This document shows, in pieces, positions 2,779 to 51,102 of a DNA stretch of 64,000 nucleotides (positions are counted from its first letter, which is position 1; each line of letters opens with the position of its first letter). Source of the DNA: Candidatus Dojkabacteria bacterium (GTDB lineage: Bacteria; Patescibacteriota; Dojkabacteria; J137). The translations under genes were made by a program, and so were the position numbers. Where the stretch lies: positions 231,772 to 295,771 of the forward strand of contig JBDTVZ010000001.1 of assembly GCA_040006935.1 (NCBI GenBank), given 5' to 3'. The notes beneath the pieces were generated by a model. It was not told the origin of the DNA and searched no databases. It saw only the letters and a list, made by a program, of their open reading frames with translations.

Positions 2779-2830
2779 AATGCCAGAAATTTTTAACAAA
2801 AACCTAAAATCCTTCTAAGATTAGGCTAAT

Positions 2831-2880
2831 TTTGTCAGAAAAAAGTGAGAAAATGTCAAAATTTGTATTGCAATACATTT
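2831..2880 (+). promoter_or_regulatory. Conserved upstream motif copy 1 (TTGTCA ... AAAATGTCAAAATTTGTATTGCAATACATT), putative promoter/operator of the RHS operon
   Basis: A near-identical ~35-nt motif recurs at 14141..14195. It contains the perfect palindrome TGTATTGCAATACA about 53 nt upstream of the 2933 start codon. Confidence 0.35.
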
Positions 2881-2932
2881 TTTTTATTCCTTTTTTAGGT
2901 TAGAATCCATTAGTAAAAATTTATATACTAAA

Positions 2933-17599: not shown

Positions 17600-19045
17600 A
17601 TGGATAAGCAAGAAGTTATTGTCAGATTTGACAAAGTTACTTTTAAATACAACGATAAAAAGACAACTCTGGACGAAGCAGATTTCTCTGTACGTAAAGA
17701 CGCTAAAATAACAATAATGGGACAAAATGGTGCTGGAAAGAGTACTATTTTTAAATTATTGATCGGAGAATTAAAACCAACTTCAGGGAAAATCAATATA
17801 AAAGACGGATCTAAGATCGGAATTGCTCAGCAAATGATTGCAAAAGAATCCTTAGATTTGACAATCTTGCAGTATTTTGAATCGGCATTTGAAGAAAAAG
17901 TTTATGGAATTGAAAAGAAAATAAAGGATGTTTTAAGGACTGTAAATTTAGAAGTTCCGCTGGAAAAACAAGTGAAAGATTTATCTGGAGGACAAAAAGC
18001 GAGATTGCTTTTAGCTTTTGCATTAATACAAGATCCAGATATTTTATTACTCGACGAGCCTACAAATAATTTAGACCAGGTTGGAATCGAACACCTTACA
18101 GGATTCCTAATGTTTTACCCAAAGACCGTAATTGTAATTTCTCACGATGCAGATTTTTTAAATATGTTTACAGACGGGGTTCTAAACTTAGATACACATA
18201 CTCATAAAGTAGAGCAATTTGTAGGAAATTACTACGACGTTATTGCCCAAATAGAGGCACAGAGGGAAAGAGAAAGATTATTAAATGCTCGAATTGAAAA
18301 AAGTGTTAAAGATAGATTTGAAAAAGTTAATAAGTTGGGAGGAAAAAGTGTTGCTATGCGAAAACTTGCAAATAAAGTTAGAGAAGATATTGAAACTGAT
18401 CGTGAAAATATTGTAGAAGTTAGAAAAGAAGACAAAACTATTCCTGAATTTACAATTCCTGCACAACATACAATTACTTCTGTTATTCATATTACTTCAG
18501 TAAAATTTTTGAAAGAACATCAGATTCATGAAAGTAAGGTAGATCTAAAGCTATTTCGTGGAGACAGATTGATAATTAAAGGTCCAAATGGAATAGGGAA
18601 GAGTACTTTAATAAAGTCTTTGTTAAATCAAGAAGGGGCAAAAATTAGTGAAGATGTGCGAGTAGGTTACTACAGCCAAGATTTCTCTGAATTAGATATG
18701 AATGATACTGCTCTCAACTCTCTCAAAAGTGTAATGCAGGAAGTAGATATACCTAAGCTATATGCTACCGCAGGAAGATTTATGCTCACTGGAGAGCTTT
18801 TAAACAATAAAGTAGAATCTCTTAGTGAAGGACAGAAGGGATTACTTTGCTATGCAAGATTTATGTTACAAGAACCAGGACTATTAATAATGGATGAGCC
18901 TACAAATCATATAAATTTTAGACATATTCCAGTTATTGCAAAAGCTTTGGATGAGTATAAAGGTGTTTTAATTCTTGTGAGCCACTTACCAGATTTCGTG
19001 TCACAAATTAAGATTAAAGACGAATTAGATCTTCAAAGGCTGTAA
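17600..19045 (+). CDS. ABC-F family ATPase (two tandem ABC domains, no TMD)
   Basis: Walker A GQNGAGKST and GPNGIGKST. Signature LSGGQKARL and LSEGQKGLL. Walker B LLLDEPTN and MDEPTN. Confidence 0.85.
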   Translation: MDKQEVIVRFDKVTFKYNDKKTTLDEADFSVRKDAKITIMGQNGAGKSTIFKLLIGELKPTSGKINIKDGSKIGIAQQMIAKESLDLTILQYFESAFEEKVYGIEKKIKDVLRTVNLEVPLEKQVKDLSGGQKARLLLAFALIQDPDILLLDEPTNNLDQVGIEHLTGFLMFYPKTVIVISHDADFLNMFTDGVLNLDTHTHKVEQFVGNYYDVIAQIEAQRERERLLNARIEKSVKDRFEKVNKLGGKSVAMRKLANKVREDIETDRENIVEVRKEDKTIPEFTIPAQHTITSVIHITSVKFLKEHQIHESKVDLKLFRGDRLIIKGPNGIGKSTLIKSLLNQEGAKISEDVRVGYYSQDFSELDMNDTALNSLKSVMQEVDIPKLYATAGRFMLTGELLNNKVESLSEGQKGLLCYARFMLQEPGLLIMDEPTNHINFRHIPVIAKALDEYKGVLILVSHLPDFVSQIKIKDELDLQRL

Positions 19046-22473: not shown

Positions 22474-23736
22474 TTACTCGTATCTCAAAGCATCAATTGG
22501 ATTCAATCTCGCAGCTTTTGCAGCAGGATAAATGCCAAATATAATTCCAATTAAACTTGAAACACCAACAGCAAGCAAAATTGCATCCATTGTCACAACT
22601 CCTGAAAAATCCAAAAGTCTACTTGCTCCTATACTAATTGCATAACCTAACAAAATTCCGAAAATTCCTCCTAAAAGCGTAAGGATTACTGCTTCAATCA
22701 AGAATTGAATTAAGATATCAGTTGTTTGTGCACCAACGGCTTTTCGCAATCCTATTTCACGAGTTCTTTCTGTTACAGAGACAAGCATAATATTCATAAT
22801 TCCTATTCCTCCAACTAATAAAGATATCGCTGCTATTCCTGCGAGTAATGATGTTAAGACTCCTGTAATCTGACTAACTGTGGATAAGAGTTCACCTGCT
22901 GTGGTTAAAGAAAAATCTGCTAGAGATTTATCCTCAATATTGTGGTTTTTTAAAATAATATCTTCAATTTGAGATTTGGCTTGTTCTACAGTGTCGCTAG
23001 TAACTGCCTGTACTGTAAAACTATTGTAGTAATTAGTTTTGAATAAACTTAATGCTGTAAAATCTGGAATAAATGCTTCAGAGTTCGGATTATTAAAACT
23101 GAAATTACTTTCTTCTTTTTTTGCTAAAACTCCAATAATTGTAAATTCAGTATTTTGAACGGTTATTGTTTTATCTATAATATCAGTCGAATCAAAGAAT
23201 TCATGGGCAATTGAATCTCCTAGAATGATTACATTATCATTCCTATCGATATCATCAAGGTCCAAATACTTCCCACCAGAAAGTGGTAAGTCATTAATTT
23301 GGAAATACCGTGGAGAAACTCCCGCAACATTAAATCTTTCCTCAATTGCATCTAGTTTGAATATCGCATTGCTTGAAACAGTTCCACTAATATTCTTAAC
23401 CAAGTCTGTTGAAACTTGATCAAGTGATTGTAAATCCTCTTTTGTTAAAGTTTGAGGAGTCGAAAGACCAGCGCCTGGAGTTCCAGTTTGTTGCCTTTGA
23501 GATACTCCATTTTCAGATACTCTTGATGCAAGACTACTACCTGACATTACTGTTATATTTGTACTTCCAAGTCCAGAAATTTGATCTGTAATACTTGCTT
23601 GAACCCCGTTGCCTAAAGCGATTAATCCAATCACAGATCCTATACCTATTATTACTCCAAGTACTGTTAAGAAGCTTCTTCCTTTGTTGGATAATATTGA
23701 TCTAAAAGATTGTTTTAAAATACTATAAAGTTTCAT
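22474..23736 (-). CDS. ABC transporter permease, MacB/FtsX type
   Basis: N-terminal TM, large periplasmic domain, then a C-terminal FtsX-like 3-TM bundle. Confidence 0.8.
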   Translation of the reverse strand: MKLYSILKQSFRSILSNKGRSFLTVLGVIIGIGSVIGLIALGNGVQASITDQISGLGSTNITVMSGSSLASRVSENGVSQRQQTGTPGAGLSTPQTLTKEDLQSLDQVSTDLVKNISGTVSSNAIFKLDAIEERFNVAGVSPRYFQINDLPLSGGKYLDLDDIDRNDNVIILGDSIAHEFFDSTDIIDKTITVQNTEFTIIGVLAKKEESNFSFNNPNSEAFIPDFTALSLFKTNYYNSFTVQAVTSDTVEQAKSQIEDIILKNHNIEDKSLADFSLTTAGELLSTVSQITGVLTSLLAGIAAISLLVGGIGIMNIMLVSVTERTREIGLRKAVGAQTTDILIQFLIEAVILTLLGGIFGILLGYAISIGASRLLDFSGVVTMDAILLAVGVSSLIGIIFGIYPAAKAARLNPIDALRYE

Positions 23737-23758
23737 AATTTAGAATTTAAATCGTAAG

Positions 23759-24439
23759 TTATTTATTATTTTCAATATTAGTTACTTCTCCGTCTTTAAC
23801 ATGTATTATTCTATCTGCGTATTTTGCAATTTCATCTTCATGGGTAATCAGAACTATAGTTGCGCCCTCTTTATTAATTTCTTGAAATAATTGCATAATT
23901 TCGTTTGATTTCTTACTATCAAGGTTACCAGTTGGCTCATCTGCTAAGATTATACTGGGCTGCATCATTAGAGCCCTAGCAATTGCAACTCTTTGAACTT
24001 GACCACCGGAGAGCTCATTACTTTTATGATTCTTACGATCTTTCAAACCTACCTTTTCTATTAAAAATTCTGCTCTCTGACTTGGATTACTTACTTTTCC
24101 GTAAATTGAGGGAAGAAGCACATTCTCCAAAACTGTTGTTCTTGGTAATAAGTTAAATTGTTGGAAAACAAAGCCAATTTCTTTATTTCTAATCCTTGCA
24201 AGTTCTCTTCCTTTCAATTTACTTACATCCTTGCTGTTTAAAATATAAGTTCCATTTGTTGGAGTATCGAGCAATCCAAGTAAATTCATTAACGTAGACT
24301 TTCCAGAACCTGAGGGCCCCATTATTGCGACAAATTCACCTTTGTCTATAGTTAAATCAATGTTTTTAAGTGCATGTGTAAGCTCACCACCGTTTTTATA
24401 AGTCTTGTGTATGTTTTTTAAATCGATTAAAGCACTCAT
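23759..24439 (-). CDS. ABC transporter ATP-binding protein (MacB/LolD-like)
   Basis: GPSGSGKST Walker A, LSGGQVQRVAIARAL signature, ILADEPTGNLD Walker B. Confidence 0.9.
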   Translation of the reverse strand: MSALIDLKNIHKTYKNGGELTHALKNIDLTIDKGEFVAIMGPSGSGKSTLMNLLGLLDTPTNGTYILNSKDVSKLKGRELARIRNKEIGFVFQQFNLLPRTTVLENVLLPSIYGKVSNPSQRAEFLIEKVGLKDRKNHKSNELSGGQVQRVAIARALMMQPSIILADEPTGNLDSKKSNEIMQLFQEINKEGATIVLITHEDEIAKYADRIIHVKDGEVTNIENNK

Positions 24440-26993: not shown

Positions 26994-29900
26994 TTACTCA
27001 ATCCACCAATCCAACCAAACACTTGCACCTCCACTTAATTCTCGATACTCAACTTTAATGGTGTGAAGACCAGCAGTCATATTTAATGTTGCATCATCTT
27101 CCTCATATCCATGAGGTCCCCAATGATCTATTGCGAGAGTTCCGTCAATCCAGACTCTTACCCCATCATCGCTACCTTCCATAAATGTATATGTGTCTGC
27201 ATCAAAGTAGAATTGTCCCTCATATCGAGCAGAGAAGTTGTTACTACTAATTCCACTGATTGGTGAGTTCGATCCCCAATCATAATCAACATTCGATGTG
27301 TACATAGACATTGTTGGTGTTCCTGTTAATGTTGCATTATTAAAGTATTTTGCACAGAACCTTCCAACGTCCACACAATTTGATGTTTGAGTTTGAGGAA
27401 GTGTCCAAGATAATCCTGCTGTAGCATCTCCTGTTCCATCGTAATATTCCATTTTGATAGCATGAGCTCCTGCTGTTAATGTAACTGTCGAAGAATTCAT
27501 AGTTGTTGTATGCGATGTCCAATTATTTATTTTTTGAACATTATCTACCCATAACCTAACTCCATTATCTGATGTTGTAACGAACGTATAACTTCCAGCA
27601 GTTGGGAAATTAATATTTCCAGTCCATCTTGCAGAGAAATTATTACTATTTACTGATGCATCGGGACTTCCTCCCCACCAGAAATTAGAAATTGTATCTT
27701 CACATCTTGTTAGAACTGGAGAGCCAGTTAAACCTGTATTGTTATAGTATTGCGCAGTAAATGTACAACTCGCATTGACTTTGAATAGAGCAGATTTGCT
27801 TGCTGTTGCTCCGTGTGAATCTGTTGCTATGAATTCTATATTCTGTTGACCAGTCCAGTTTACTGGTGTTGTTATTGTGACAACATTGCTAGCATTGATA
27901 CTTACAGTTAGCGGTCCATTATTTGCATAGCTCCAAGTGATTGGATCTGCAATATCTGGGTCACTTCCATAATTATCTAAATCGAATGTTGTAAAGCTTT
28001 GCCCTAATACGATTGTTTGTCCTGGAATTGTATTTACAACTGGATCATTATTATCAACAGGTTCAAAGTATTGCCATACTGATGCTCCTCCTCCTATTTC
28101 TCTGTACTCACCTTTTACTTGATGAACACCAGCAGATACGTTTATAGTTTTATAATCCTCTTGGTACCCATGTGGACCCCAAGAGTCTATTACTGCTTGA
28201 TTATCTAGCCAAACTCTTACTCCATCATCAGATGCTGTCCCAAATTCATAAGTTTCTCCTGTGAAAGTAAAGTTTCCTCTCCATCTTAACGAAAATGCGT
28301 CATCGTTAGTTATTCCATGTCCAGGACCCCATTGCTGCCAGTCTGCATCCACACCATTTTGTACTGCTACAAATACTGGACTTCCGGATAGAGTAGAATT
28401 ATTGAAATATTCTACACAGTAGAGATCACTTGGAATAGTATTGCAATTCCCTCCGTACTGATACCATACTAAAGCTACGACAGCATCACCCGTCGCTTCG
28501 TAATATTCCACTTTTACACTATGAATTCCTGAAGTCAATGTTATGTCATAATCATTATTTTCCCATGAGTGACTTGTCCAGTTATCAATTCTTAGTGTGT
28601 TATCTACCCAAACCCTAATTCCATTATCTGAGTTTGTATGGAAAGTGTAATTGCCAGCCGCAAAGTTTATATTCCCTTGGTATCTTGCAGAGAAATTATC
28701 TGCATTAACAGATGGATCCGGACTATCACCATCCCACCAGAAGTTTTGAACAAGACTTTCGCACCTTGTAAGAGCTGGGGTTCCAGTTAAGGTTTGATTG
28801 TTAAAGTATTGTGCAGTGAATTGTCCTGCACATGCGTCCACCACATTATTTACTTTGAATAGCGCAGAACTACTTGCAGTAGCAGCGGAACTATCTGTTG
28901 CTGTAAATGTAACCGATTGTTCGCCCACCCAGTTTGCAGGAGTTGCTACTGTAACTATATTGTTTGAATCGATATTTACAGTTAAAGGTCCGTTATTGCT
29001 ATAGCTCCAAGTTATTGAATCTGCAATATCTGGATCTGTGCCATAAGTATCTAAATCAAATGTTGTAAAATTTTGTCCTAGGGTAACTGTCTGGCTTGGG
29101 ATTTGTGTTACTACCGGTGTACTATTTGCAACTGGAACAAAATATTGCTCTATGATTGCATTTCCACCAATTTCTCGGAATTCACCTTTTACTTTGTGAG
29201 TACCAGAATTTACTCTCATAGTCTTAGCAGTTTCCTGATAACCATGAGGTCCCCAGTCATCTATTACTAATTGATTATCTAACCAAATTCTTGCTCCATC
29301 GTCTGAAATTTCATCAAATTTATATGTTCCAGTGTTAAAACTGAAGTTGCCCGTCCACCTTATAGAGAAACTATCATCATTAGTAATTCCATGTCCTGGT
29401 CCCCATTGTCCCCAGTCAGAATCTACCACTCGTTTTGTAGTTACAAATACAGGGCTTCCGGATAAATCAGAGTTATTGAAGAATTCTATACAATATAGAT
29501 TTGTTGGAACTGAATTACAATTTCCTCCATATTGATACCATGTTAAAGATGCTACTGCATCACCTGTTGCTTCGTAATACTCAACTTTTATATTATGAGT
29601 TCCTGCAGATAAAGTGATGTCGTAATCATTGTTTTCCCAAGAGTGACTTGTCCAATTATCAATTCCTAGAGCTCCATCAATCCAAACTCTAATTCCATTG
29701 TCTGAGTTTGTATGGAATGTGTAATTACCAGCAGCAAAGTTTATATTTCCTATCCATCTTGTCGAAAAATTATCTGCATTTACTGTTGCATCAGGACTTG
29801 TTGTTCCCCACCAGAAATTATCGATAACATCTTCACACCTTGTAAGAACCGGTGCATTAGTTAAAGTTTGATTGTTAAAGTATTGTGCAGTGAATTGCCC

Positions 29901-32900
29901 TACGCAAGCATCCGTGCTAACTGTGAAGGTTGCTGTACTATTTGCAGATGCATTTGCAGCATCAGTTAAAGTAAACATTATTGATTGAGATCCTGTCCAG
30001 CCATTTGGAATTGTTATAGTTACAACTTTTTGAGTATCAATATTTACACCCAAAGAACCGTTTCCTGAATATGACCAAGTTAGTGTATCGCCAGCATCTT
30101 GATCGCTTCCATAATTATCCAAATCAAATGTTGTAAAGTTCTGTCCTGTTGAAATTGTCTGACCAGGAATTTGACTTACTGTTGGTGGATTATTTGGCGG
30201 TGTATTAACTGTAAATACTGCCGTCGAACTTGCATTGGCGCTTAAATTATCTGTGGCTTTAAAAGTAATATTCTCCGTTCCAGTCCAATTACTTGGATAG
30301 GTTAGAGTAGCTACATTATTTACAATTGAAATTGAAATATTTGTATTTCCAGAGTAACTCCAAGTTACTGAATCTCCTGCATCCTGATCACTTCCATACG
30401 AACTCAAATTAATTGTTGAGAAATTTTGACCTCTAGTAATAGTTTGATTTGGAAGTTGATTTACAACGGGTGCGTGATTTGCATTTAGTAAATCAATTTG
30501 CAATTTTGCTTTTGCCCCACCTGCATTTTCAAAGTATTCCATTTTAACCTCATGTACGCCTGCTGTAAGAGTTTTAGATCCTGCATATGGAGTCTGACCA
30601 TCTTGATCAATCCATCTATCAACAACTAAAGTACCATCAACCCACAATCGTGTTCCATCATCTGTCCATGTCGTGAAGTTATAATTCCCTCCTGCTGCAA
30701 AGTTTATATTTCCTGTCCAACGAATAGAGAAGTTATCTTGTGGACACTCAATTTGATTTGTAATTGCTACAGGATTTAATGTTCCAGTTACTGAATTACA
30801 ATAGGTAATGAATATTCTTCCTAAGCCGCCTTGTCCACCGCCTCCAGAAGGTCCATTTTGATTTCCACCGTTTCCTCCGAGTGCTGTAGATAAGTTTGAT
30901 CCAAGATTAAAAATACTTCCATGTAGAATTATAGTTCCTGCGGCACCTCCACCTCCACCACCAACGTGGCTTCCAGCATTGTTCCCGCCACTTCCATCCG
31001 CATTAATTTTACCTTGAAGATTAATTACATTAGCATATCCAAATAGAATTCCTCCTCCATTTCCACCATTATTTCCATTTATTGTTGTGATATTTCTTCC
31101 TTGATACCCACCGCTAGCTCCACCACCAGAACCAAATAATACTGAAGATTGATCATTTACACCAATACTTGATCCTCCACCACCTCCACCTGTTCCAACA
31201 TCCGGACTATTCCATGAGTATCCTCCAGTTCCAGTATATCCTAATGCTTGAGAACCACCGTTAGAACCGGCAACCGAAACTCCTCCTCCATTTCCACCAC
31301 CTACTGTACTTCCGGCTAATCCTCCTGGCTGTCCATTTACATTACTATCGGATCCACCTCCGCCTCCACCTCCTGCTGTAGCATTTGCACCACCACCTCC
31401 TCCACCTGTTCCTTCATCACCTTGGCCTGAATTTAAGAAGTCATATCCTCCGGATCCAGCTCCTCCTGATCTTAAACCTGCAGGAGATGTTGCACCATTT
31501 CCAGAACCACTTCCACCTCCGTATGAACCAGTTCCATTTGGAGAATTACCTCCTCTTCCAACAAATCCATCTGTAGACTCACCATTAATCCCTCCTAGAT
31601 TTACTCCCACACCAACTCCTCCTCTGTAACCCTTACCTTTTAGGTCAATTATTCCTAAAGTTCCCACATTTACTGTGCCGTTTGCTTTGAATGCCATAAC
31701 TCCCCCTGTACTTCCATCCCAATTTGCTACAGTGAAGATTCCGTCTATATTAATATTTCTATATTGATTGACTTTTAGAATCTGAGCTACTGAACCACTA
31801 CCCACTGTATAAGTATTATTCAAATTATTTGTTAATGTTAAATTTGTTCCTGAAATACTTGCAACGGTATTGAATTCATACTTTCCCACTCCTGTTCCTA
31901 ACATTTGAATTATTAATATACTATCACCTGCAGTAAATGCACTTGAAGGTGCTCCACTTATAGTAACAATCTTTTGATTTGCAGCAGAAGTCAATGAAAC
32001 TGCACTTCTAACAGTATCTGTATAAACTGTCTGGTTTGTAGAAACACTTAGATCTCCTTCTCTTCCATCTCCTGTTTCGTTTCCTGGAGTTACTAGAGGT
32101 ACTGGACCTCCTCCCGCCCAATCAAAATCAATTGTGTCATCACATGATGTACCTACAGGAGTTCCATTTAACTCTTTATTTGGATAATATTGACCATAAT
32201 ATTGATTAGTTGAACAAGGCCATATTGTAAAGTTTGCACTCTTAGTTGCTTCTGCATGCCAATTGTCAGTTGCTTTAAATGTAATATTTTCTGTACCAGT
32301 CCAATTTGCAGGATAAGTTAAAGTTGCTACGTTATTCGTAATAGAAACTCCAATATTAGAATTACCTGAGTAACTCCAAGTTATTGTGTCTCCACTATCC
32401 TGATCACTTCCATAACTAGCTAAATTTATATTTGTAAAAGCTTCACCTGCTCCAATTCGCTGATCCGGAATAGTTGTTATAACAGGTGCATGGTTATTTG
32501 CTGGTTGAACAAAAAATTGTGCTAATGCATTGCCCGTTGCTTCGTAGTATTCCATTTTTACAGTATGTAAGCCAGCAGTTATAGGAGTAGCTTGAGATAA
32601 GTTAACCCCGGCATTATTTATCCATTTATCTATTAATAAATTAGCGTCAACCCAAAGCTTTGTACCATCATCTGTATTTGTCTGGAATATATATGTATTT
32701 GCAGAGAAATTTATATTTCCTGTCCAACGAATAGAGAAGTGATCTTGAAAACAATCCGTTTGAAGTTGTTTTGTTACCTCTAGTGCAGAGCCTGTTATGG
32801 CATCACAATATTCTATCCTTGTTCTACCACCTCCACCATTTCCACCACCTGCTCCTTGCGAAGGTGTTCCTGGTCCTCCATTCCCGCCATTTACTAATAA

Positions 32901-35900
32901 TTTATTTGTTTCAATATTTGCAGATTTTGTTTTAAGAACTATAGTTCCACCTGCACCTGCGCCTCCACCTCCTGCTAAGTTGTAGCCTCCACCTTGTGCT
33001 GAAGCACCATTACCACCTACCGAAGTTATTTGCCCTGTAATATTTAAAACATTTGCATCTATTAAAATTGCTCCTCCACCATTACCTCCAGCTCCACTAT
33101 CTGTTCCATCTTGGCCTGCTCCTCCACTTCCACCACCTCCACCAAAGTACAATTTTTCTACTTCGTTAGTTCCATAAGTTTTTCCTGGTCCTCCATTACA
33201 CCATCCATCTGATGAAGGTGATAAGCCTCCACCTCCATCTGTTTTATTTCCACCACCTCCACCTCCGGAAGCATGTTTATTTGAGTCCCAAACATAAACA
33301 TATCCATGTCCTGGACCCCCACCGTTTGCATTTGAATCATCATTTTGCCAACAATCAACAATGTTATTATTGTAATTTCCTAAATATCCTTCTCCTGCGT
33401 GTCCTCTGTCTGGATTATTTTCTGTTGTTCTGGAACCTCCTCTATATCCTTTTCCATCAACTCCTATGTCACCAACTACTGTAACAGTTCCTGTGGCTTT
33501 TATAGCTACTATTCCACCAGTTTGACCATCCCAATTATGAGCAGTTAAATGACCATTCACAGTTAGATTATGGTATTGTGCTACTTTTACAAATTGAACA
33601 ATATCACTACCACTCACTGTATATGTATTTGCTAAAGGTGAAGTTAATGTAACTGTGTTTCCACTAATACTTTGAATAATTCCATATTCATATGTTCCAG
33701 TAGAACTTCCAACCATTGAAACTATTATTAACCTATCTCCTTTATCTAATTGATTCATTGAATTCAATTTTATTTGATTAGATCCACTTGTTGCTGTTTC
33801 TGTTAAGTTTCCACGAATATCATCTGTATATATTGTTTGAGTTGAATCTATCGTCAAATCTGGCAAACCTTGAGCTACTGGGCCTAAATTTCCCCAATCA
33901 TAATCAATATTACTTACACAATTAGTAAATTCTTCACCTCCACTTAAAGTAGAATTTCCATAATATTGCATCGCGTACTGTCCTGTTGGACATGCTACGT
34001 TTACATTAATAGATGCGCTTGCACTTCCACCTGTATTTTGAACAGTTACTGAAATTGTTTGGCTTCCCAAGCTTCTTAAATTATAGGTAGCACTTGCAGT
34101 TGATTGTCCTCCAACTGGAGTAGGTGACCAATTGTAAGTTAAGTTTGAAGCGTCCGATGGACTTGCTAAAGCAGTGAATGTATTATTTTCGTTTACATTT
34201 ATTTGATTAGATCCACTTATATATACTTGAACAGGCGCAACATCTTGAACTCTAAAACTGCCTTGAGCACTCCATCCGGAGTCACCCATTGGTGTCCAAG
34301 ATCTTACATGCCAATAATATGGATTAGCTGACGCTGTTAGATCTGTTCTTGTCCATGCACTCGAATCGATCCATCCGGAACCTTGCATCGTTCCATTAGG
34401 AATATTTCCTCCCCATACATCTACTGTGTACCTATCTCCATTTCCAGTCCAAGTCATAACTACTGGTGTTCCAGGAAGGAAACTAGCATTTTCTTGTGGG
34501 GAAAGCGGAGTAGGTGTAACTGAGCCAGGTGGACAGCTGCCTTGGCAAACTTGTATTGACGAAGCTCCATCTCTTAATCCTTGAGCTACAGCATTCAAAT
34601 CTGATACATCATGATTTGTACGTCCGCAAATTCCATGAAAACCACCATCTGAACAGATTATTACTTCATACCCAGAAGTTACTCTTATTGACTCTGTTTT
34701 ATCATTTCTTAGTTCGGAAGGTGTATCCCAGAAACTTAAGTCTGAAATTGTTCTATCGCTAGTGAATGGATTTCCATCGTTGTAATCTCCAAGTCTATAT
34801 AATTTAAATGCTTCTGGACTTCTTCTTCTAACTTGAATTGATGACGTATTATAACCGAAAGGAATTCCTCCTAAATCAGTATTTGTTCCATTTGTTTGAT
34901 ATCTTCTTGCTCCATAGTTATCATCTTCGAATAGAACTACTTCCCAATTTCCTCCAATATCAATAGATTTCAATGTATCGTTTCCAAAACCTTGGGCTCC
35001 TAAACTAGGAATATCTTGAGTAACTAAGAAACAATCTCCTTGATGATCGTTCCAAGAACCTGTAACTCTACAAATTTTAACCCAATCATTATTATTTCCG
35101 GAAGGACATACATTAGTACTATAAACTTTCATAGATTCTACGCTGTTGTACCAACCTCCAACTGTTTCTAAATTTTGTACTGATGAATTGAAACATTGTG
35201 TATTTCCGACCAATCCGATATGCTGATCACTTAAAATTACGGACCAACCTGATGGTATAGACATTGATTTATATTGAGCACCTCTATCTGGGGCTTCAGT
35301 TTCTCCTACTCCAGCTTGTACCCTAATTGATGATGGATCGTAACCAGAATTTCCGTATAGAACTACTTTGTCTCCTGAGTTTCCTCCTCCTCCCGTTCCT
35401 GTTGGGTAACATGCATCTGGAGTTCCTGAAGGTTTTAATTCACAACCGTTATTACATTGTTGAACTACGCTTATACTTCCATTACTACAGTTGAATAGAG
35501 TATTTGAGTCCAAACCTAAAGTACTTCCACAATAATTTCCATTTCCTCCACTTGGACATGTTCCACCACCTGTTGACACTCCTCTACAAACATCAGCTGT
35601 TCCCGGTGGTTTTTGAATACAACCATTCGAACAAGTTTGAGTTTCTGTTTTTACACCATTTTGACAGTTATAAAGTTTGTTAGCAGTTAAACCAAGTGAC
35701 GATCCACAATACATTCCGTTTTGACCATTTGGACAACTGGAAGTACTAGAACCTGTGCTACAGAAGTCCGCTGTTCCTTGGGCCTGAACACTACAACCGT
35801 TAGAACATTGCTGAATAAGACTATTATTCCCATTTGTACATTGATAAAGATTTGAATCGTTAATACCCAATGTGACTCCACAATATTTGCCATTTTGATT

Positions 35901-37973
35901 ATTAGGACATGTATTAGAAGATACTGGAGGGGTACATGCGGTTAAAGCTTCTAAACTAAGACCAGTAGCTTGTGCACTACAAACACCACCATCCAGTGTT
36001 ATATTTAATTGATTAGATGTATTATAATTTACGAATAAGTGACCATACCCATATACTCCATTACTTACTGCAACAAAATCTCTTCCACCTGGATATATAC
36101 TTCCCGAAAAATTAAACGTTCCATTATAATTTATTGGTACTGATATAGAAACTGGTTGATTTCCTGTAGAAAGATAAACATAACCACTTCTTGCTACAGC
36201 GCCTGAAGCATTTGGTAGAAATACATATCCGGCAACAGAGCCATAAACTTGACCATCTAACTTAAACTCACCTGCGAATTGAGTTGAAGATCCAGGGCTT
36301 GTTGCGAATTCATGATGTTGTATCAAATTTTCAATAGCAGGTTGTCCATTATAAGTCTGATCAAGGTCTTTATATAAAGACATATGTGCATGACAATTAC
36401 TTGTACCTGAATTTCCAACTTCCCCTAGTTTTTGACCATAAGTAACACTATCCCCATCTGAAACCACTCTTAAATTAAGATGCGCTACTCTCAAGGCAAT
36501 ATTAGGATTTTCACTTGAACGAACAATGATTGTATTTCCATAACCCGAGTTCGAGAAATATGAAGCTATAACAATTCCTGCGAAGGGGGAATTAAAGTTT
36601 TGATTGCAGTCATTTGCACCATTGATCCTATTCCAATCTTCTGCCAACTCATCTGCCCCATGATGAGTATCTGTACTGTGGCCATTACCTGTTAGTGCCC
36701 AATCTAAAGTATCAAAAGGCCAAAACATATGTATAGGGCTAGAATTTAAATCTACAGCTTGTTGCGAAAAAACGATATTACTAGTTTGACTTGTAGACTC
36801 ATTGCTATTTCCATTAGTTGATGGTGTATTCGTCCCAATCTCCTTATTACCACCAAAAGCAACGACTTTCCCATCAAGATTCACTGTTTGTCCTAATGCA
36901 ATATCTAAAGCATAAATTCCTGCAACTTGTGGCGCTGCAAAGCTTGTTCCAGAAACCAATCCATAAGTTCCATCAACTTTAGTTGTTAAAATATCTCTTC
37001 CTGGTGCATAAATATCAATTTGAGGTCCGTAAGTAGAAAAGCTTGATCTTTGAAGGCTCTGATCAATAGAACCGACTGCGATTGAATTTTCATAAGCTGC
37101 TGGGTAGAGCACTCCTTCTTGTCCAGTATTTCCTGCTGCAGCAACTACTATTACGTTTTTAGATTTTGCATAATTTACAGCATTTTCTAAAAGAGTAGAG
37201 GTATTAGAGCCTCCCAAACTTAAGTTAATTACTTTTGCTTCGTGATCGGCTGCATAAACAATTGCGGCAGCAACATTTGAATAACTTCCTAATCCTTGGC
37301 TATCTAAAACCTTTAATGGCATTATTTTTACATTTGGAGCAATTCCTGCAATTCCAATGTTGTTATTTATATTAGCTGCAATTATTCCAGCAACACTACA
37401 CCCATGTCCTAAATCATCATTTACATTACTTGAATTATCAATAAAATTCTTTCCATCTATTATTTTTCCTTGTAAGTCTGGATGGTTTGCACAAACTCCA
37501 CTATCAATTACTGCTACTTTTACTTCTAATTGGCTTTGCTCAGTTGTCATTGAATCCCAAACTGATTGTACATTCATTGTAGATAATGCCCATTGTTCTG
37601 AATAACTTGGATCGTTTGGTGTACTTAAAGCTGCTGCATAGTAATCAGGTTCCTGTGCTGCAACAATTGTAGATTCTGGTAAGGCTGTATTATTTGAATC
37701 TAAATTAACAACAACGGAATTCAAATTTGCGATTTCACTTACTACAGTTGCGCCAATAGATTTAATGTATGCCTGTTTCTCCTCATCAGTAGCACCTGGT
37801 TTGAAATTCACAACTACTTGGTTTGGTACAGGATCTTTTGGAATTACGACATTAGAAAGATTCTCAGATTCGGAAGACTTTTTTATATATGTATAAACCA
37901 AAGAAAACACCGACACCACCAATGTGAGAGTTAGGATGAATAACGCATACCGTGACTCTTTGAATGTTTTCAT
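26994..37973 (-). CDS. Giant secreted multidomain protein with I9 propeptide, S8 subtilisin, M23 peptidase, Cys-rich repeats, ~10 PA14-like domains, cadherin-like domains and two Gly-rich beta-solenoid-like modules
   Basis: 3659-aa uninterrupted ORF with an N-terminal signal anchor. S8 triad candidates: VAVIDSGV, HGCSVAGI, GTSFAAPQVAG. M23 motifs: HHGAD, VAHLN, CHAHMS. Four CPNGQNGxYCG...C repeats. Repeated PA14-like units of the form FTAQYFNN...NFSARWTGNINF...SDNGIRVWVD. NHAPV...WSYSGN cadherin-like units. GKGYRGG followed by GGGG-rich runs. Confidence 0.85.
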   Translation of the reverse strand: MKTFKESRYALFILTLTLVVSVFSLVYTYIKKSSESENLSNVVIPKDPVPNQVVVNFKPGATDEEKQAYIKSIGATVVSEIANLNSVVVNLDSNNTALPESTIVAAQEPDYYAAALSTPNDPSYSEQWALSTMNVQSVWDSMTTEQSQLEVKVAVIDSGVCANHPDLQGKIIDGKNFIDNSSNVNDDLGHGCSVAGIIAANINNNIGIAGIAPNVKIMPLKVLDSQGLGSYSNVAAAIVYAADHEAKVINLSLGGSNTSTLLENAVNYAKSKNVIVVAAAGNTGQEGVLYPAAYENSIAVGSIDQSLQRSSFSTYGPQIDIYAPGRDILTTKVDGTYGLVSGTSFAAPQVAGIYALDIALGQTVNLDGKVVAFGGNKEIGTNTPSTNGNSNESTSQTSNIVFSQQAVDLNSSPIHMFWPFDTLDWALTGNGHSTDTHHGADELAEDWNRINGANDCNQNFNSPFAGIVIASYFSNSGYGNTIIVRSSENPNIALRVAHLNLRVVSDGDSVTYGQKLGEVGNSGTSNCHAHMSLYKDLDQTYNGQPAIENLIQHHEFATSPGSSTQFAGEFKLDGQVYGSVAGYVFLPNASGAVARSGYVYLSTGNQPVSISVPINYNGTFNFSGSIYPGGRDFVAVSNGVYGYGHLFVNYNTSNQLNITLDGGVCSAQATGLSLEALTACTPPVSSNTCPNNQNGKYCGVTLGINDSNLYQCTNGNNSLIQQCSNGCSVQAQGTADFCSTGSSTSSCPNGQNGMYCGSSLGLTANKLYNCQNGVKTETQTCSNGCIQKPPGTADVCRGVSTGGGTCPSGGNGNYCGSTLGLDSNTLFNCSNGSISVVQQCNNGCELKPSGTPDACYPTGTGGGGNSGDKVVLYGNSGYDPSSIRVQAGVGETEAPDRGAQYKSMSIPSGWSVILSDQHIGLVGNTQCFNSSVQNLETVGGWYNSVESMKVYSTNVCPSGNNNDWVKICRVTGSWNDHQGDCFLVTQDIPSLGAQGFGNDTLKSIDIGGNWEVVLFEDDNYGARRYQTNGTNTDLGGIPFGYNTSSIQVRRRSPEAFKLYRLGDYNDGNPFTSDRTISDLSFWDTPSELRNDKTESIRVTSGYEVIICSDGGFHGICGRTNHDVSDLNAVAQGLRDGASSIQVCQGSCPPGSVTPTPLSPQENASFLPGTPVVMTWTGNGDRYTVDVWGGNIPNGTMQGSGWIDSSAWTRTDLTASANPYYWHVRSWTPMGDSGWSAQGSFRVQDVAPVQVYISGSNQINVNENNTFTALASPSDASNLTYNWSPTPVGGQSTASATYNLRSLGSQTISVTVQNTGGSASASINVNVACPTGQYAMQYYGNSTLSGGEEFTNCVSNIDYDWGNLGPVAQGLPDLTIDSTQTIYTDDIRGNLTETATSGSNQIKLNSMNQLDKGDRLIIVSMVGSSTGTYEYGIIQSISGNTVTLTSPLANTYTVSGSDIVQFVKVAQYHNLTVNGHLTAHNWDGQTGGIVAIKATGTVTVVGDIGVDGKGYRGGSRTTENNPDRGHAGEGYLGNYNNNIVDCWQNDDSNANGGGPGHGYVYVWDSNKHASGGGGGGNKTDGGGGLSPSSDGWCNGGPGKTYGTNEVEKLYFGGGGGSGGAGQDGTDSGAGGNGGGAILIDANVLNITGQITSVGGNGASAQGGGYNLAGGGGAGAGGTIVLKTKSANIETNKLLVNGGNGGPGTPSQGAGGGNGGGGRTRIEYCDAITGSALEVTKQLQTDCFQDHFSIRWTGNINFSANTYIFQTNTDDGTKLWVDANLLIDKWINNAGVNLSQATPITAGLHTVKMEYYEATGNALAQFFVQPANNHAPVITTIPDQRIGAGEAFTNINLASYGSDQDSGDTITWSYSGNSNIGVSITNNVATLTYPANWTGTENITFKATDNWHAEATKSANFTIWPCSTNQYYGQYYPNKELNGTPVGTSCDDTIDFDWAGGGPVPLVTPGNETGDGREGDLSVSTNQTVYTDTVRSAVSLTSAANQKIVTISGAPSSAFTAGDSILIIQMLGTGVGKYEFNTVASISGTNLTLTNNLNNTYTVGSGSVAQILKVNQYRNINIDGIFTVANWDGSTGGVMAFKANGTVNVGTLGIIDLKGKGYRGGVGVGVNLGGINGESTDGFVGRGGNSPNGTGSYGGGSGSGNGATSPAGLRSGGAGSGGYDFLNSGQGDEGTGGGGGGANATAGGGGGGGSDSNVNGQPGGLAGSTVGGGNGGGVSVAGSNGGSQALGYTGTGGYSWNSPDVGTGGGGGGSSIGVNDQSSVLFGSGGGASGGYQGRNITTINGNNGGNGGGILFGYANVINLQGKINADGSGGNNAGSHVGGGGGGAAGTIILHGSIFNLGSNLSTALGGNGGNQNGPSGGGGQGGLGRIFITYCNSVTGTLNPVAITNQIECPQDNFSIRWTGNINFAAGGNYNFTTWTDDGTRLWVDGTLVVDRWIDQDGQTPYAGSKTLTAGVHEVKMEYFENAGGAKAKLQIDLLNANHAPVVNQLPNQTITRGQNFSTINLSSYGSDQDAGDSVTWSYSGNTNISISIVNNVATLTYPSNWTGTENITFKATDNLSANASSTAVFTVNTPPNNPPTVSQIPGQTISTGQNFTTFDLDNYGSDQDAGDTLTWSYSGNGSLGVNIDTQKVVTITIPNGWTGSQSIMFTLTDAANASANSTATFTVSTDACVGQFTAQYFNNQTLTNAPVLTRCEDVIDNFWWGTTSPDATVNADNFSTRWIGNINFAAGNYTFHTNSDNGIRVWIDGALGIDNWTSHSWENNDYDITLSAGTHNIKVEYYEATGDAVASLTWYQYGGNCNSVPTNLYCIEFFNNSDLSGSPVFVTTKRVVDSDWGQWGPGHGITNDDSFSIRWTGNFSFNTGTYKFDEISDDGARIWLDNQLVIDDWGPHGYQETAKTMRVNSGTHKVKGEFREIGGNAIIEQYFVPVANSTPVVTQIPSQTVTLGQNFTTFDLDTYGTDPDIADSITWSYSNNGPLTVNIDSNNIVTVATPANWVGEQSVTFTATDSSAATASSSALFKVNNVVDACAGQFTAQYFNNQTLTGTPALTRCESLVQNFWWDGDSPDPSVNADNFSARYQGNINFAAGNYTFHTNSDNGIRVWVDNTLRIDNWTSHSWENNDYDITLTSGIHSVKVEYYEATGDAVVALVWYQYGGNCNTIPSDLYCVEYFNNSTLSGSPVFVAVQNGVDADWQQWGPGHGITNDDAFSLRWRGNFTFTGETYEFGTASDDGVRVWLDNQAVIDSWGPHGYQEDYKTINVSAGVHQVKGEYREIGGGASVWQYFEPVDNNDPVVNTIPGQTIVLGQSFTTFDLDNYGSDPDIADPITWSYANNGPLTVSINASNVVTITTPVNWTGQQNIEFIATDSHGATASKSALFKVNASCTFTAQYYNNTGLTGSPVLTRCEDTISNFWWGGSPDASVNSNNFSARWTGNINFPTAGSYTFVTTSDNGVRLWVDNVQKINNWTSHTTTMNSSTVTLTAGAHAIKMEYYDGTGDATAGLSWTLPQTQTSNCVDVGRFCAKYFNNATLTGTPTMSMYTSNVDYDWGSNSPISGISSNNFSARYEGQFYFDADTYTFMEGSDDGVRVWIDGTLAIDHWGPHGYEEDDATLNMTAGLHTIKVEYRELSGGASVWLDWWIE
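36369..36731 (-). other. Peptidase M23 (LytM-like) domain of the giant protein with intact Zn-binding motifs
   Basis: HHGAD (HxxxD), AHL and CHAHM (HxH) at aa ~437-531. Confidence 0.6.
36894..37601 (-). other. Peptidase S8 (subtilisin) catalytic domain of the giant protein
   Basis: Asp, His and Ser motifs are intact at aa ~157, ~190 and ~343. Confidence 0.7.
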
Positions 37974-38284
37974 TGTAGGAGGTTAAAAAATAAGAAAATC
38001 CCATTTCTGGGATTTCAAGTTTTATTGTTGAATACTAATAATACAGAGTGCTGTAGTTTCTAGGTTAACTTGATTCATAAATGAGATTGCTCTGTAAATA
38101 AAATTAATACTTAACTTTATCTAAAGAGATGATATTATCTTTTGACATCATTTACAAAAAAATTTATTCCCCTTATAGTATTCGATATCTTGACTGATTA
38201 GGGAATGAAGGTGAGTGTTTTTGAAGGGAAAATGAAGAACCGAGAAAGCTCGGAAGCTCTCTCGGCAAATGTTAAATAAAATTA

Positions 38285-40496: not shown

Positions 40497-41315
40497 TTAT
40501 TCTTTTCTTCCAAACTTCAAGTAGACCTCAAATAACTCAATCCACTCTTCAAATTTGATTTCAGTAGGTCTTTTATTCAAATTGATTCCGTTATTTCTAG
40601 AAATAATTACGAGCTGTTTGTATGTAAAGAAATTTTTTAAAGAATGCCTAATGTCTTGTTTCCAGCTTGTAAAACAGTATGTTAGAAATTTAAGATATTC
40701 AGCCTTTGAGTTTTTTGGAATAATTGGCGGTTCTCTTTTTTTAATATTGATTACGGAAACTTCAACACTTGGAATTGGATAAAAATCACTTTTATGCAAA
40801 TGCATAATTACCCTACTTTCAAACCACGGTTTATATCTCATTGAGAATAAATTTTCCGAATTCCTTGATCCAGTTAGTCTTAAAGCCGCTTCCCTTTGAA
40901 TAATTAATGTAATTTCTATTGGTGGATTTGGTGCTTCTAAAAGTTTTCTAAAAATTTCTGATGTTAGTGCAAAAGGAATATTTCCTACTACTTTGTAATT
41001 TTTATTGAGAGGAAGTTGAAATTTAAGGAAATCCTGATTTATAAACTCAATATTAGATTGCTCACTGAAACTTTCACTCAATTTAATGTGCAAATCTTTA
41101 TCTTTCTCTATTGCAAGGAGCTTCCCACAGTGGTTAATTATATGCTCTGTTAAGGCTCCTTTCCCAGGTCCAATTTCAATTACAACATCGGTCTTTTGAA
41201 AGTGACACAGGCGGACAATCTCTACCGCAAGTCTTCGCGTTTTTATAAAATTTTGTGAATATCTAATGTGATATGGATTAGTTCGTTGAATCCTCGAACG
41301 AGAAAATCTCTTCAT
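40497..41315 (-). CDS. rRNA adenine N6-(di)methyltransferase, KsgA/Dim1/Erm family (full-length collinear with ErmC)
   Basis: YSQNFI, VIEIGPGKGALTE (SAM-binding) and GNIPFALTSEIF (NxPY-type). The C-terminal GINLN...EIKFEEWIELFEVY parallels the ErmC C-terminal domain. Housekeeping KsgA has the same fold and cannot be excluded. Confidence 0.75.
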   Translation of the reverse strand: MKRFSRSRIQRTNPYHIRYSQNFIKTRRLAVEIVRLCHFQKTDVVIEIGPGKGALTEHIINHCGKLLAIEKDKDLHIKLSESFSEQSNIEFINQDFLKFQLPLNKNYKVVGNIPFALTSEIFRKLLEAPNPPIEITLIIQREAALRLTGSRNSENLFSMRYKPWFESRVIMHLHKSDFYPIPSVEVSVINIKKREPPIIPKNSKAEYLKFLTYCFTSWKQDIRHSLKNFFTYKQLVIISRNNGINLNKRPTEIKFEEWIELFEVYLKFGRKE

Positions 41316-42814: not shown

Positions 42815-42875
42815 TGCTAGCCTAATTGCACGCCTACCTAACGGCAGGCAAGCCTATTTGGCTGCAGCAAACTTA
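42815..42875. repeat. GC-rich island (repeat family member R2) in the promoter region of the second ABC-F gene
   Basis: GCACGCCTACCTAACGGCAGGCAAGCCTATTTGGCTGCAGC stands out in AT-rich DNA. Confidence 0.35.
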
Positions 42876-42894
42876 CTTTCCTTACCTTAAATTT

Positions 42895-44331
42895 ATGATA
42901 CGAGCAAATAATCTTACAATTACATATGCAAAACTTATTTTTGGGAATCTCTCTTTTACCTTAGGTAACAACGAAAAGGTAGGTCTTGTAGGCCTTAATG
43001 GATCTGGAAAAACTACTTTATTACGAATTCTAATTGGTTTAGAGAAAGCAGATGTAGGTTCTGTAGAATTACAAAATGAAAAGATCTCATACTTACCACA
43101 AGAATATACTTTTGATGAGAGGCTTTTAGTTGGGGAATTTTTAGAAGAACTTCTAGATAATCCTAAAAATGAGATGTATATAGTGAACAGGATACTGGCA
43201 AAGCTACAATTTGATGTAGATATTTACCAAGAAATTAAAACATTAAGTGAAGGGCAAAAGATGAAGCTTTACTTAACTAAATTACTGACCGAAGAGCCTA
43301 CAATTTTGCTGCTCGACGAACCGACAAATCATCTAGATATAGATGGAATTATTTGGTTAGAAAGTTTTATAAAATGTTTCGAGGGGATTTGCATAATTAT
43401 TTCTCATGATAGAGAGTTTCTTAACAGCACAATCGATACAGTTTTCGAAATTGATGAGAATCAATTATTTGTATACAAAGGTAACTATGATGATTATTTA
43501 AAGCAAAAAGATGAATATTTAGAAAAAAGAAGTAACCAATACGTTTTACAAGAGAAGAAGAGAGAGAAGTTAGAGAACTTACTTCTTACAGCATATAAAA
43601 TTTCTAATGGGAGGAGACAATCAAAAGCTTTAAGCGCTGCCAGACATAGAATGGAAAGAGAAGTGACGCGAAATGAAATATCAACGTACAAGGAAGAAAA
43701 AATTGAAGGTTTAGATCTAAAAGGTTTTGTTCATAATAATAAATTTGTTTTAAAAATTCGAAACCTTAACTTTTCTTATAAAGATAAAATTATTTTCAAA
43801 AACGCAAATTTTGACATGTTTGGGAAAGAAAGAGTGTGGTTTTACGGTCATAATGGAATTGGGAAAACCACATTTGTAAAACTGATATTAAATATGCTCA
43901 AACCTGAAAGTGGCGAAATACGAATAGGTAACGCTTTAAGATATGTATACTTTTCGCAGGATCAATCACATTTGGACATGGAAGATACTGTTGAAAATTA
44001 TTTCATTACCCATACAGGAGTTTCATACGATAGTTCTTTTGGTGTTTTAGAAAAATTTTTATTTTCAAAGGATTTTAGAAAATCTAAGATAAAAACCTTA
44101 AGTCCAGGACAGAGAGCAAGGTTAACTTTTGCAGTTTTTTCTATGAAAGAGTACGATTTTATGATTTTAGACGAGCCAACTAATCATTTGGATATTAAAT
44201 CTAAAGAAGTAATTGAAGAAGCATTGCGTGATTTTCAAGGGGCAATATTACTAATTTCTCATGATCGATATTTTGTAGATTCTGTGGGTTACAATAGAAA
44301 AATTACAATAAAAGATAAGAAATTAATTTAA
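42895..44331 (+). CDS. ABC-F family ATPase (second paralogue)
   Basis: Walker A GLNGSGKTT and GHNGIGKTT. Signature LSEGQKMKL and LSPGQRARL. Walker B LLLDEPTNHLD twice. Start placed at MIRANNL because the 23-aa ORF-track extension runs over the GC-rich island. Confidence 0.8.
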   Translation: MIRANNLTITYAKLIFGNLSFTLGNNEKVGLVGLNGSGKTTLLRILIGLEKADVGSVELQNEKISYLPQEYTFDERLLVGEFLEELLDNPKNEMYIVNRILAKLQFDVDIYQEIKTLSEGQKMKLYLTKLLTEEPTILLLDEPTNHLDIDGIIWLESFIKCFEGICIIISHDREFLNSTIDTVFEIDENQLFVYKGNYDDYLKQKDEYLEKRSNQYVLQEKKREKLENLLLTAYKISNGRRQSKALSAARHRMEREVTRNEISTYKEEKIEGLDLKGFVHNNKFVLKIRNLNFSYKDKIIFKNANFDMFGKERVWFYGHNGIGKTTFVKLILNMLKPESGEIRIGNALRYVYFSQDQSHLDMEDTVENYFITHTGVSYDSSFGVLEKFLFSKDFRKSKIKTLSPGQRARLTFAVFSMKEYDFMILDEPTNHLDIKSKEVIEEALRDFQGAILLISHDRYFVDSVGYNRKITIKDKKLI

Positions 44332-51032: not shown

Positions 51033-51102
51033 AGAAAATTTATGAAAAAGTATATTTCTTATAGGATATATTAAGTAGTCCAACAGTGCAACGTTTGAGA
51101 AT

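Follow-up and report, generated by a model that had tools for sequence, protein, structure and literature searches.

The 64,000-bp stretch of Candidatus Dojkabacteria DNA analyzed here (GenBank assembly GCA_040006935.1, contig JBDTVZ010000001.1, positions 231,772 to 295,771; hereinafter the window, in whose coordinates all features are given) contains a gene for a 3,659-amino-acid (aa) protein in which an S8 protease and an M23 metallopeptidase are followed by a long series of predicted binding and spacer modules (Table 1). The same protein was independently called by the NCBI pipeline as MEP7103309.1 ('MAG: PA14 domain-containing protein [Candidatus Dojkabacteria bacterium]') on a contig of 516,739 bp, and its domains come in an ordered succession, which bears out the single open reading frame (ORF) claimed in an earlier note on this DNA. 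At a GC content of approximately 38%, stops account for about 6-7% of random codons (roughly 1 in 15), and the probability that 3,659 consecutive codons remain open is, by our own arithmetic, on the order of e^-250, so the ORF is not a chance occurrence; the ORF listing contains no frame of 100 aa or more on the opposite strand within this interval. To identify domains, we scanned both the full-length protein and ten segments of it against Pfam and NCBIfam and additionally used hidden Markov models (HMMs) built from its own repeats.

Table 1. Features of the giant gene, its upstream region and the second giant gene in the window.
Feature	Protein positions (aa)	Window positions	Strand	Details
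Whole giant gene		26994..37973	minus	3,659 aa plus stop, ATG start; same as NCBI MEP7103309.1
Sole hydrophobic segment	9-29	37887..37949	minus	hydropathy scan; same layout in relatives
Subtilase prodomain	45-96	37686..37841	minus	Fervidolysin_NPro-like PF22148, 36.5 bits vs cut-off 21
Thermitase-like S8 protease	118-390	36804..37622	minus	D157, H190, N282, S344
M23 metallopeptidase	420-545	36339..36716	minus	H437xGxD441, H498, C527-H528-A-H530
Beta-rich region	575-665	35979..36251	minus	no Pfam match; colinear region of paralogues scores CarboxypepD_reg
Three Cys6 repeats	689-861	35391..35909	minus	53-58 aa each; CPxGxGxYCG...LYxC...CxxGC...GxxDxC
Three beta/gamma-crystallin-like domains	~870-1145	34539..35366	minus	PF00030
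Ig-like domain	1150-1245	34239..34526	minus	weak Ig_Rha78A_N match; conserved in family
PKD domain	1252-1326	33996..34220	minus	31.6 bits on segment vs cut-off 23.5
First split PA14	1333-1821	32511..33977	minus	N-part 1333-1369, C-part 1729-1821
Big_9 domain 1	1824-1915	32229..32504	minus	
Second split PA14	1925-2492	30498..32201	minus	nested Gly-rich beta-helix ~aa 1972-2389 (~420 aa)
Big_9 domains 2 and 3	2496-2683	29925..30488	minus	
Three PA14 pairs	2694-3655	27009..29894	minus	2694-2811+2827-2943, 3052-3169+3185-3302, 3405-3522+3539-3655
Upstream intergenic region, 311 nt		37974..38284	minus	terminator of upstream gene 38266-38239, promoter-like site 38157-38129, hairpin 38016-37995; consensus matches only
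Second giant gene, MEP7103290.1, 2,777 aa		4167..12500	plus	M23 aa 78-169, DUF6531, 21 RHS repeats

The N-terminal part of the protein, hereinafter the head, starts with a hydrophobic segment that is preceded by K2, K5 and R8 and is predicted to be a signal peptide or a signal anchor. The adjacent prodomain had been described as I9-like in the earlier note but belongs to a different family (PF22148), and PF05922 (I9) gave no match in the protein even at E-values up to 1. In subtilases, the prodomain serves as an intramolecular chaperone and is subsequently removed by cleavage. The protease domain proper is recognized by Peptidase_S8 (PF00082) with a score of 179.9 bits (cut-off 21.8) and matches the structures of Ak.1 protease (E-value 5e-61) and thermitase (E-value 6e-60) in PDB. 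The triad residues D157, H190 and S344 as well as the oxyanion residue N282 are located within the conserved blocks VIDSGV, GHG, GTSFAAP and AAAGN, respectively, in register with both thermitase and Ak.1 protease. Thus, the intact triad noticed previously is indeed present, and the S8 domain appears to be catalytically competent.

A linker rich in Ser, Thr and Asn (aa 391-419) connects the S8 domain to the M23 metallopeptidase, which scores 38.6 bits against Peptidase_M23 (PF01551) in the whole protein and 42.7 bits on the segment (cut-off 28.7) and aligns with TagE (E-value 2e-4) and LytM (E-value 2e-3) from PDB over the HL and HxH motifs. In agreement with the HxxxD/HxH signature reported in the earlier note, all motifs are complete (H437-H-G-A-D441, H498 within RVAHL, and H528-A-H530), suggesting that this domain is catalytically competent as well and is a predicted peptidoglycan endopeptidase; M23 enzymes cleave the peptide bridges or stems of peptidoglycan (PMC9662197). 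An alignment with thirteen relatives reveals characteristic blocks (HxG[AS]D..Y[AS]xDW, FAFR[IV][AG]HL and CHAH..LYKN) by which this M23 domain appears to be a distinct, family-specific and apparently undescribed subtype. Secondary M23 copies in three relatives (P0379, P0376 and P0407 in our numbering) are degenerate.

Downstream of the head and the beta-rich region, the remainder of the chain consists of what we refer to as the stalk; binding and spacer modules make up approximately 85% of the protein. The stalk begins with Cys-rich repeats, of which there are three (aa 689-743, 747-800 and 806-861) and not four as previously counted, each with six invariant cysteines (hence Cys6). These repeats are covered by no Pfam or NCBIfam model and may bear a weak resemblance in fold to CBM14, the peritrophin-A chitin-binding domain. 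We detected the Cys6 repeat in 76 retrieved proteins, in a total of 376 copies and up to 15 per protein; where catalytic partners are recognizable, these are M23 (P0375, P0394), Amidase_2 (P0386, P0387) and SpoIID (P0386), all of them peptidoglycan hydrolases. The Cys6 repeat is thus a widespread domain that is missing from both collections and merits a family definition. Proteins consisting almost entirely of Cys6 repeats also exist (P0370, P0375, P0378 and P0380 among the examples), including the 993-aa P0370 which lacks any Pfam domain.

The Cys6 repeats are followed by three beta/gamma-crystallin-like domains that the earlier note had missed. On the segment, these reach 31.4 bits against Crystall (PF00030; cut-off 25) compared with just 17.3 bits in the whole-protein scan, and their matches in PDB, namely the carbohydrate-binding protein 3hzb, Protein S and spherulin 3a, are weak. 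Beyond the Ig-like and PKD domains, PA14 and Big_9 domains alternate up to the C-terminus, the protein ending four residues past the last PA14. The PA14 profile (PF07691) yields 483.9 bits over 8 stretches and the internal HMM identifies six full and two split copies; accordingly, the PA14 assignment made in the earlier note stands, whereas its count of about ten is reached only if the halves of the split domains are counted separately. All three domain assignments that the note proposed to check with HMMs (S8, M23 and PA14) score above the respective cut-offs. PA14 domains found in glycosidases and adhesins bind carbohydrate. The domains previously taken for cadherin-like are five Big_9 domains (PF17963; 60 bits for the whole protein and 28.6 for a single domain, cut-off 23.6), given that on the same stretches Cadherin_5 (PF17892) reaches only 18.9 and 19.6 bits, below its cut-off of 26.5. 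The PA14 pairs are spaced by the fourth and fifth Big_9 domains (aa 2947-3039 and 3305-3397), which results in a repeat unit of approximately 358 aa (1,074 nt).

The two Gly-rich modules that were noted previously as beta-solenoid-like are indeed present; they are not separate modules in a series but are inserted within PA14 domains. The first split PA14 encloses a Gly-rich region of about 360 aa (aa ~1370-1728), and the predicted fold of the insert is a right-handed beta-helix (beta-solenoid). The pieces of each split PA14 cover complementary positions of the profile, namely, 1-39 in the first domain or 1-62 in the second one, followed by 35-118. Because the PA14 halves have low confidence in the AlphaFold2 model (predicted local distance difference test below 50), the claim that these domains are split is based on the complementary profile coverage rather than on structure. 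The same partial PA14 matches starting from approximately profile position 40 are seen in relatives, indicating that the nested beta-helix is a family trait, and this arrangement appears to be undescribed. The insert is similar to the NCBIfam model NF047640 (gliding_AgmC_N; E-value 5e-49, model positions 98-394) and to many secreted proteins of 370-850 aa (E-values from 1e-29 to 1e-7), several of which are cargo of the Bacteroidota type IX secretion system and one comes from Saccharibacteria. Orthology with AgmC was considered and rejected because the score of 167.3 bits falls short of the equivalog cut-off of 275 bits, so that the insert is a homologous domain, nested here in PA14 and implying no gliding machinery; a search of the literature on AgmC returned nothing.

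An exhaustive HMMER search with aa 400-1330 as the query retrieved 1,188 proteins with E-values of 1e-3 or below, 96 of these at 1e-30 or below. The top matches (including P0364, P0366, P0368, P0371 and P0374) are colinear with MEP7103309.1 over 600-1,280 aa at 37-58% identity; members of this family are 1,500-4,600 aa long, 83 columns are invariant across nine of them, and P0367 is annotated as Candidatus Dojkabacteria. In contrast to the constant stalk, the N-termini differ. The prodomain-S8-M23 head recurs in P0368 (60% identity in S8 and 48% in the stalk), whereas other members possess a CHAP head (P0364, P0376, P0379 and P0381), an M23 head with CarboxypepD_reg or N_BRCA1_IG (P0365, P0371, P0374 and P0377), an NAGPA phosphodiester glycosidase head (P0369), a DUF6531 domain with RHS repeats (P0382 of 4,575 aa and P0390 of 2,785 aa), or no recognizable head (P0366 and P0372). 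Every head that could be recognized is either an envelope-acting module or a toxin cage. MEP7103309.1 is a member of this family, whose proteins share a colinear stalk (Cys6/crystallin/Ig/PKD/split-PA14/Big_9) and exchange their N-terminal heads among envelope-degrading and toxin-cage modules.

Three members are encoded consecutively at the end of an 87-kb contig of assembly GCA_016307145.1 (L002 10001..28211, the same as L004 603..20361), namely P0368 with the S8-M23 head (2,736 aa), P0366 with no recognizable head (1,570 aa) and P0371 with an M23 head (~2,130 aa). Such a tandem of proteins with differing heads suggests local duplication accompanied by head exchange. The flank of this contig has a GC content of 32%, similar to that of the window. 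No relative came up when GTDB genomes were scanned with the head or metagenome contigs with the stalk, and the alignment-based repeat of the stalk scan yielded solely this contig; no paralogues of MEP7103309.1 were found elsewhere in the window. The exact DNA of the gene has no match in the GTDB representative genomes, and the exact look-up of proteins against contigs gave no match for either this protein or its Erm-like neighbor; the only protein from the window that was met in an independent assembly is the ATPase of the MacB/FtsX-type exporter described below (a 1.5-kb Logan contig, SRR26386622). The architecture, which the earlier note regarded as undescribed, is therefore not unique, given that P0368 shares it and dozens of relatives are colinear. 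The other part of that claim holds: the NCBI name refers only to PA14, and no description of the family was found in the literature on Dojkabacteria, on Patescibacteria with PA14, M23 or subtilisin domains, on giant genes, or on Vampirococcus. Hence the head-on-stalk family itself appears to be undescribed, although its components and overall strategy are familiar ones.

A search with aa 1-700 retrieves thousands of S8 proteins, the best of which, at 51-60% identity confined to the prodomain and S8, are, where named, nearly all from Chloroflexota/Anaerolineae; a second hydrolase is present in many of them, M23 in four and C1, M6, trypsin, astacin or CHAP in the others. Given that the best named S8 matches are from Anaerolineae and that the GC content of the ORF is elevated (38% against 33%), recent horizontal transfer from Chloroflexota was considered; it is ruled out by the third-position GC content of the gene (0.186), which equals or lies below that of the neighboring genes (0.19-0.26), so that the elevated overall GC content results from the Gly-rich composition and not from a foreign origin. 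Because the prodomain-S8 module is about equally close to the Chloroflexota proteins and to the Dojkabacteria-like P0368 (60%), an older exchange of this module between the two phyla is possible.

We found no LPx[TSA]G motif, no C-terminal or second hydrophobic segment and no other anchor in MEP7103309.1. Since the only hydrophobic segment lies N-terminal to the prodomain, normal autocleavage by S8 would detach the mature chain from the producer unless some other interaction holds it; consequently, a surface location is unproven, and the sequence would fit a released lysin targeted to glycans just as well. Several known classes can be dismissed for this protein. It is not an RTX or type I secreted adhesin, given that HemolysinCabind has no match, that just two isolated GGxGxD strings are present, both within the Gly-rich inserts, and that the C-terminus is a PA14 domain in place of an RTX array. 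Neither is it a sortase substrate, as there is no LPXTG motif with a hydrophobic tail, nor an RHS polymorphic toxin, as it lacks both RHS repeats and a C-terminal toxin domain; it is the relatives P0382 and P0390 that join DUF6531 and RHS to the same stalk.

The closest parallels come from several groups of exported proteins. Enzymes of the lysostaphin class comprise a few hundred residues with one targeting domain, such as SH3b. These modular M23 bacteriolysins (lysostaphin, zoocin A, LytM and LasA) similarly combine an M23 domain containing HxxxD and HxH with wall-targeting modules and are exported against other bacteria (PMC9662197, PMC12356512). In MEP7103309.1, by contrast, M23 is of a distinct subtype and is sandwiched between S8 and approximately 3,100 aa of modules. 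The Chloroflexota S8 fusions (P0026 of Ca. Villigracilis affinis, P0002, P0010 and P0034) share the hydrophobic segment, the prodomain and S8 but are only 700-1,200 aa long, lack the PA14/beta-helix stalk and belong to free-living lineages with a higher GC content; judging by reading of the sequences, the first-motif His and Asp of the Chloroflexota S8-M23 proteins seem to lie far apart, like those of LasA. The giant RTX adhesins that bind ice and sugars, with MpIBP of Marinomonas primoryensis as an example, contain very long Ig-like extenders together with a PA14-type sugar-binding module and a beta-solenoid; they are type I secreted, with a C-terminal RTX region and an N-terminal retention module, and contain no enzymes. 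The stalk of MEP7103309.1 resembles theirs, but the protein has no RTX, is predicted to be exported via its N-terminus and carries two hydrolases.

Among ultra-small, host-dependent bacteria, both predatory Omnitrophota and Vampirococcus lugosii likewise encode very long exported adhesion proteins for which host attachment or wall degradation has been proposed (10.1101/2023.11.21.568195; PMC8080830); the Omnitrophota 'archaeovorins' reach 39,678 aa, and some of them possess an N-terminal S8 domain (10.1101/2023.11.21.568195). These giants differ in containing glycosyltransferases, dockerins, TPR, WD40 and many transmembrane segments, and the Vampirococcus hydrolases are separate small proteins, unlike those of MEP7103309.1. 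No sequence relationship between MEP7103309.1 and the Omnitrophota or Vampirococcus giants was found in this work.

Taken together, the data point to a function that we consider moderately probable: MEP7103309.1 would be an exported, glycan-targeted, envelope-attacking enzyme used on other cells by a host-dependent bacterium belonging to the candidate phyla radiation (CPR). Under this scenario, the hydrophobic segment would direct export via Sec, and the prodomain would fold the S8 protease and then be removed autocatalytically, as is known for subtilases. The stalk, which by our own rough estimate from typical domain sizes might extend about 100 nm, would bind envelope glycans of another cell via its Cys6, crystallin-like and PA14 modules and hold the head there, so that S8 could degrade surface proteins and M23 could cut the peptide bridges or stems of peptidoglycan. 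The resulting local breach of the wall would serve attachment, feeding or lysis.

This proposal is consistent with several lines of evidence. Both hydrolases score above the curated cut-offs and retain all catalytic residues; on the same stalk, relatives bear different heads that attack the wall (CHAP, M23 alone, NAGPA and the RHS cage), which fits such a role; the Cys6 repeat fits it too in that it travels with peptidoglycan hydrolases; and another protein encoded in the window, MEP7103290.1, joins M23 to an RHS toxin cage. All cultivated Patescibacteria (CPR) are episymbionts (PMC12206443), and in the CPR predator Vampirococcus, giant surface proteins have been proposed to mediate attachment whereas separate secreted peptidoglycan hydrolases are thought to degrade the wall (PMC8080830). 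Attack on the envelope of another cell, as suggested in the earlier note, is accordingly in line with the S8, M23 and PA14 domains, with the heads of the relatives and with CPR biology, but the description of the protein as a surface polypeptide is unsupported, given that no anchor was identified. Predation or epibiosis by this particular organism is an inference. In a CPR bacterium, a protein of this kind hardly comes as a conceptual surprise.

Certain points weigh against this interpretation. The apparent lack of a cell-surface anchor means that contact-dependent use is not supported, and with the enzymatic head located at the end that bears the membrane segment, a tethered weapon would be awkwardly arranged unless the chain is released. 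The PA14, crystallin-like and Big_9 domains are found also in ordinary adhesins and glycosidases, so that ligand specificity cannot be read off them. Finally, sequence by itself cannot separate the proposed attack on envelopes from scavenging by a freely secreted exoenzyme that binds glycan-rich debris (dead cells, sheaths or matrix) and frees peptides and muropeptides as food for an auxotroph, no living host being its target.

We consider such a scavenging role unlikely, though it is the best of the alternatives. It is compatible with the absence of an anchor and with the location of the prodomain, which separates the membrane segment from the remaining chain, with the similarity of S8 to the secreted multi-hydrolase proteases of free-living Chloroflexota (51-60% identity, the closest relatives), and with the lack of amino-acid synthesis in CPR bacteria (PMC10031880). 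Against this, releasing the product of an 11-kb gene would be costly for a genome of approximately 0.5 Mb, RHS cages, which are modules of antagonism, occur on related stalks, and the tandem, head-swapped paralogues look more like diversification of targeting.

Somewhat less plausible still is a role primarily as a giant adhesin whose stalk mediates attachment, whose S8 domain does no more than process the protein itself or neighboring surface proteins, and whose M23 domain is a binding or regulatory module and is not lytic. The predominance of binding and spacer modules in the chain, the proposed self-cleavage by the N-terminal S8 of giant Omnitrophota proteins (10.1101/2023.11.21.568195), the degenerate M23 copies in the three paralogues mentioned above and the two members without a recognizable enzymatic head would all fit this possibility, but MEP7103309.1 keeps all zinc and catalytic residues of M23 along with the S8 triad, and in the relatives the heads are not just missing but have different hydrolases in their place. 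A role as an autolysin, remodelling the wall of the producer during growth and division, is very improbable: M23 peptidases commonly act in cell separation (PMC9662197), but the huge glycan-binding array combined with a broad-specificity protease, the interchange of heads with CHAP, NAGPA and RHS, and the several tandem paralogues all speak against it, and peptidoglycan synthesis has been reported to be incomplete in some Dojkabacteria (PMC10031880), which, if it applied here, would make a self-directed role less likely.

The least credible explanation, which we rate as highly improbable, is an artefact of assembly or gene calling whereby collapsed or mis-joined repeats produced a falsely long ORF. 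The source is a metagenome assembly, the gene is internally repetitive, and MEP7103309.1 is the sole member of its 90%-identity cluster. Nevertheless, the DNA repeats within the gene are only 62-83% identical, and the good matches are short (the longest spans 300 nt at 72%), far below what assemblers collapse, which argues against the collapse of repeats that the earlier note had raised as a concern. Furthermore, every segment gives recognizable domains in the correct order, the colinear P0368 comes from independent assemblies, both at NCBI (the metagenome assembly GCA_016307145.1) and in Logan, and the third-position GC content agrees with that of the neighboring genes.

Returning to the proposed attack on other cells, a broader and more tentative extension, which we regard as rather speculative, is that Dojkabacteria and their relatives own a diversifying 'lytic tentacle', that is, a stalk of about 100 nm (with the new CBM14-like Cys6 wall-binding repeat, the crystallin-like domains and PA14 with the nested beta-helix) presenting interchangeable heads (S8 plus M23, M23, CHAP, NAGPA or the RHS cage), and that this would be their main apparatus of host recognition and breaching. 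If so, variation of heads and stalks would set the host range. The type of head borne by the constant stalk could serve as a host-range marker. Given that no Dojkabacteria have been cultivated, the gene and its family provide clonable and testable candidates for their attachment to hosts or feeding on them: the enzymes can be tested on the walls of candidate hosts, and the binding modules could be used as probes for finding hosts. The structural items that domain libraries miss (the Cys6 repeat, PA14 with a nested beta-helix and the distinct M23 subtype) are of interest as well, and even under a more ordinary interpretation, the analysis upgrades the annotation of proteins currently labelled 'PA14 domain-containing' or 'hypothetical'.

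The second giant gene in the window encodes MEP7103290.1, in which a signal-like N-terminal segment precedes M23 and the RHS repeats, and no Pfam model matches the last ~400 aa, in which there are hydrophobic stretches rich in Gly and Ala. It is unusual for M23 to be fused to an RHS toxin cage. The RHS region of MEP7103290.1 shows 27-31% identity to those of P0382 and P0390, and RHS parts common to this protein and to the stalk relatives indicate that stalk and RHS proteins draw on one shuffled pool of modules.

In the intergenic region upstream of the gene for MEP7103309.1, the hairpin directly 5' of the ATG consists of a 9-bp stem followed by a T-run; it might act as a terminator in both directions or as a leader element. 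At approximately -11 to -6, the sequence reads CCTCCT, the complement of the Shine-Dalgarno sequence, and not AGGAGG.

The protein encoded at 40497..41315 (minus strand) is 100% identical to MEP7103313.1 of Candidatus Dojkabacteria and is named by NCBI as an Erm-type 23S rRNA methyltransferase; two ATPases similar to ABC-F ribosomal protection proteins are encoded at 17600..19045 and 42826..44331 (both on the plus strand), so that all three genes lie within 27 kb. Genes resembling antibiotic resistance determinants have been reported for the CPR in general (10.1101/2021.07.02.450847). An ABC exporter pair of the MacB/FtsX type (permease and ATPase; 22474..24439, minus strand) is located 2.5 kb downstream of the gene for MEP7103309.1. 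Elsewhere, pumps of the MacB type export toxins, peptides or lipoproteins. A DinD-like DNA-damage-inducible protein is encoded at 48884..49942 (minus strand), next to two ORFs of about 350 aa each (50172..51227 and 51103..52131, minus strand) that overlap by 125 nt, match no family and could represent a single frameshifted or split gene.

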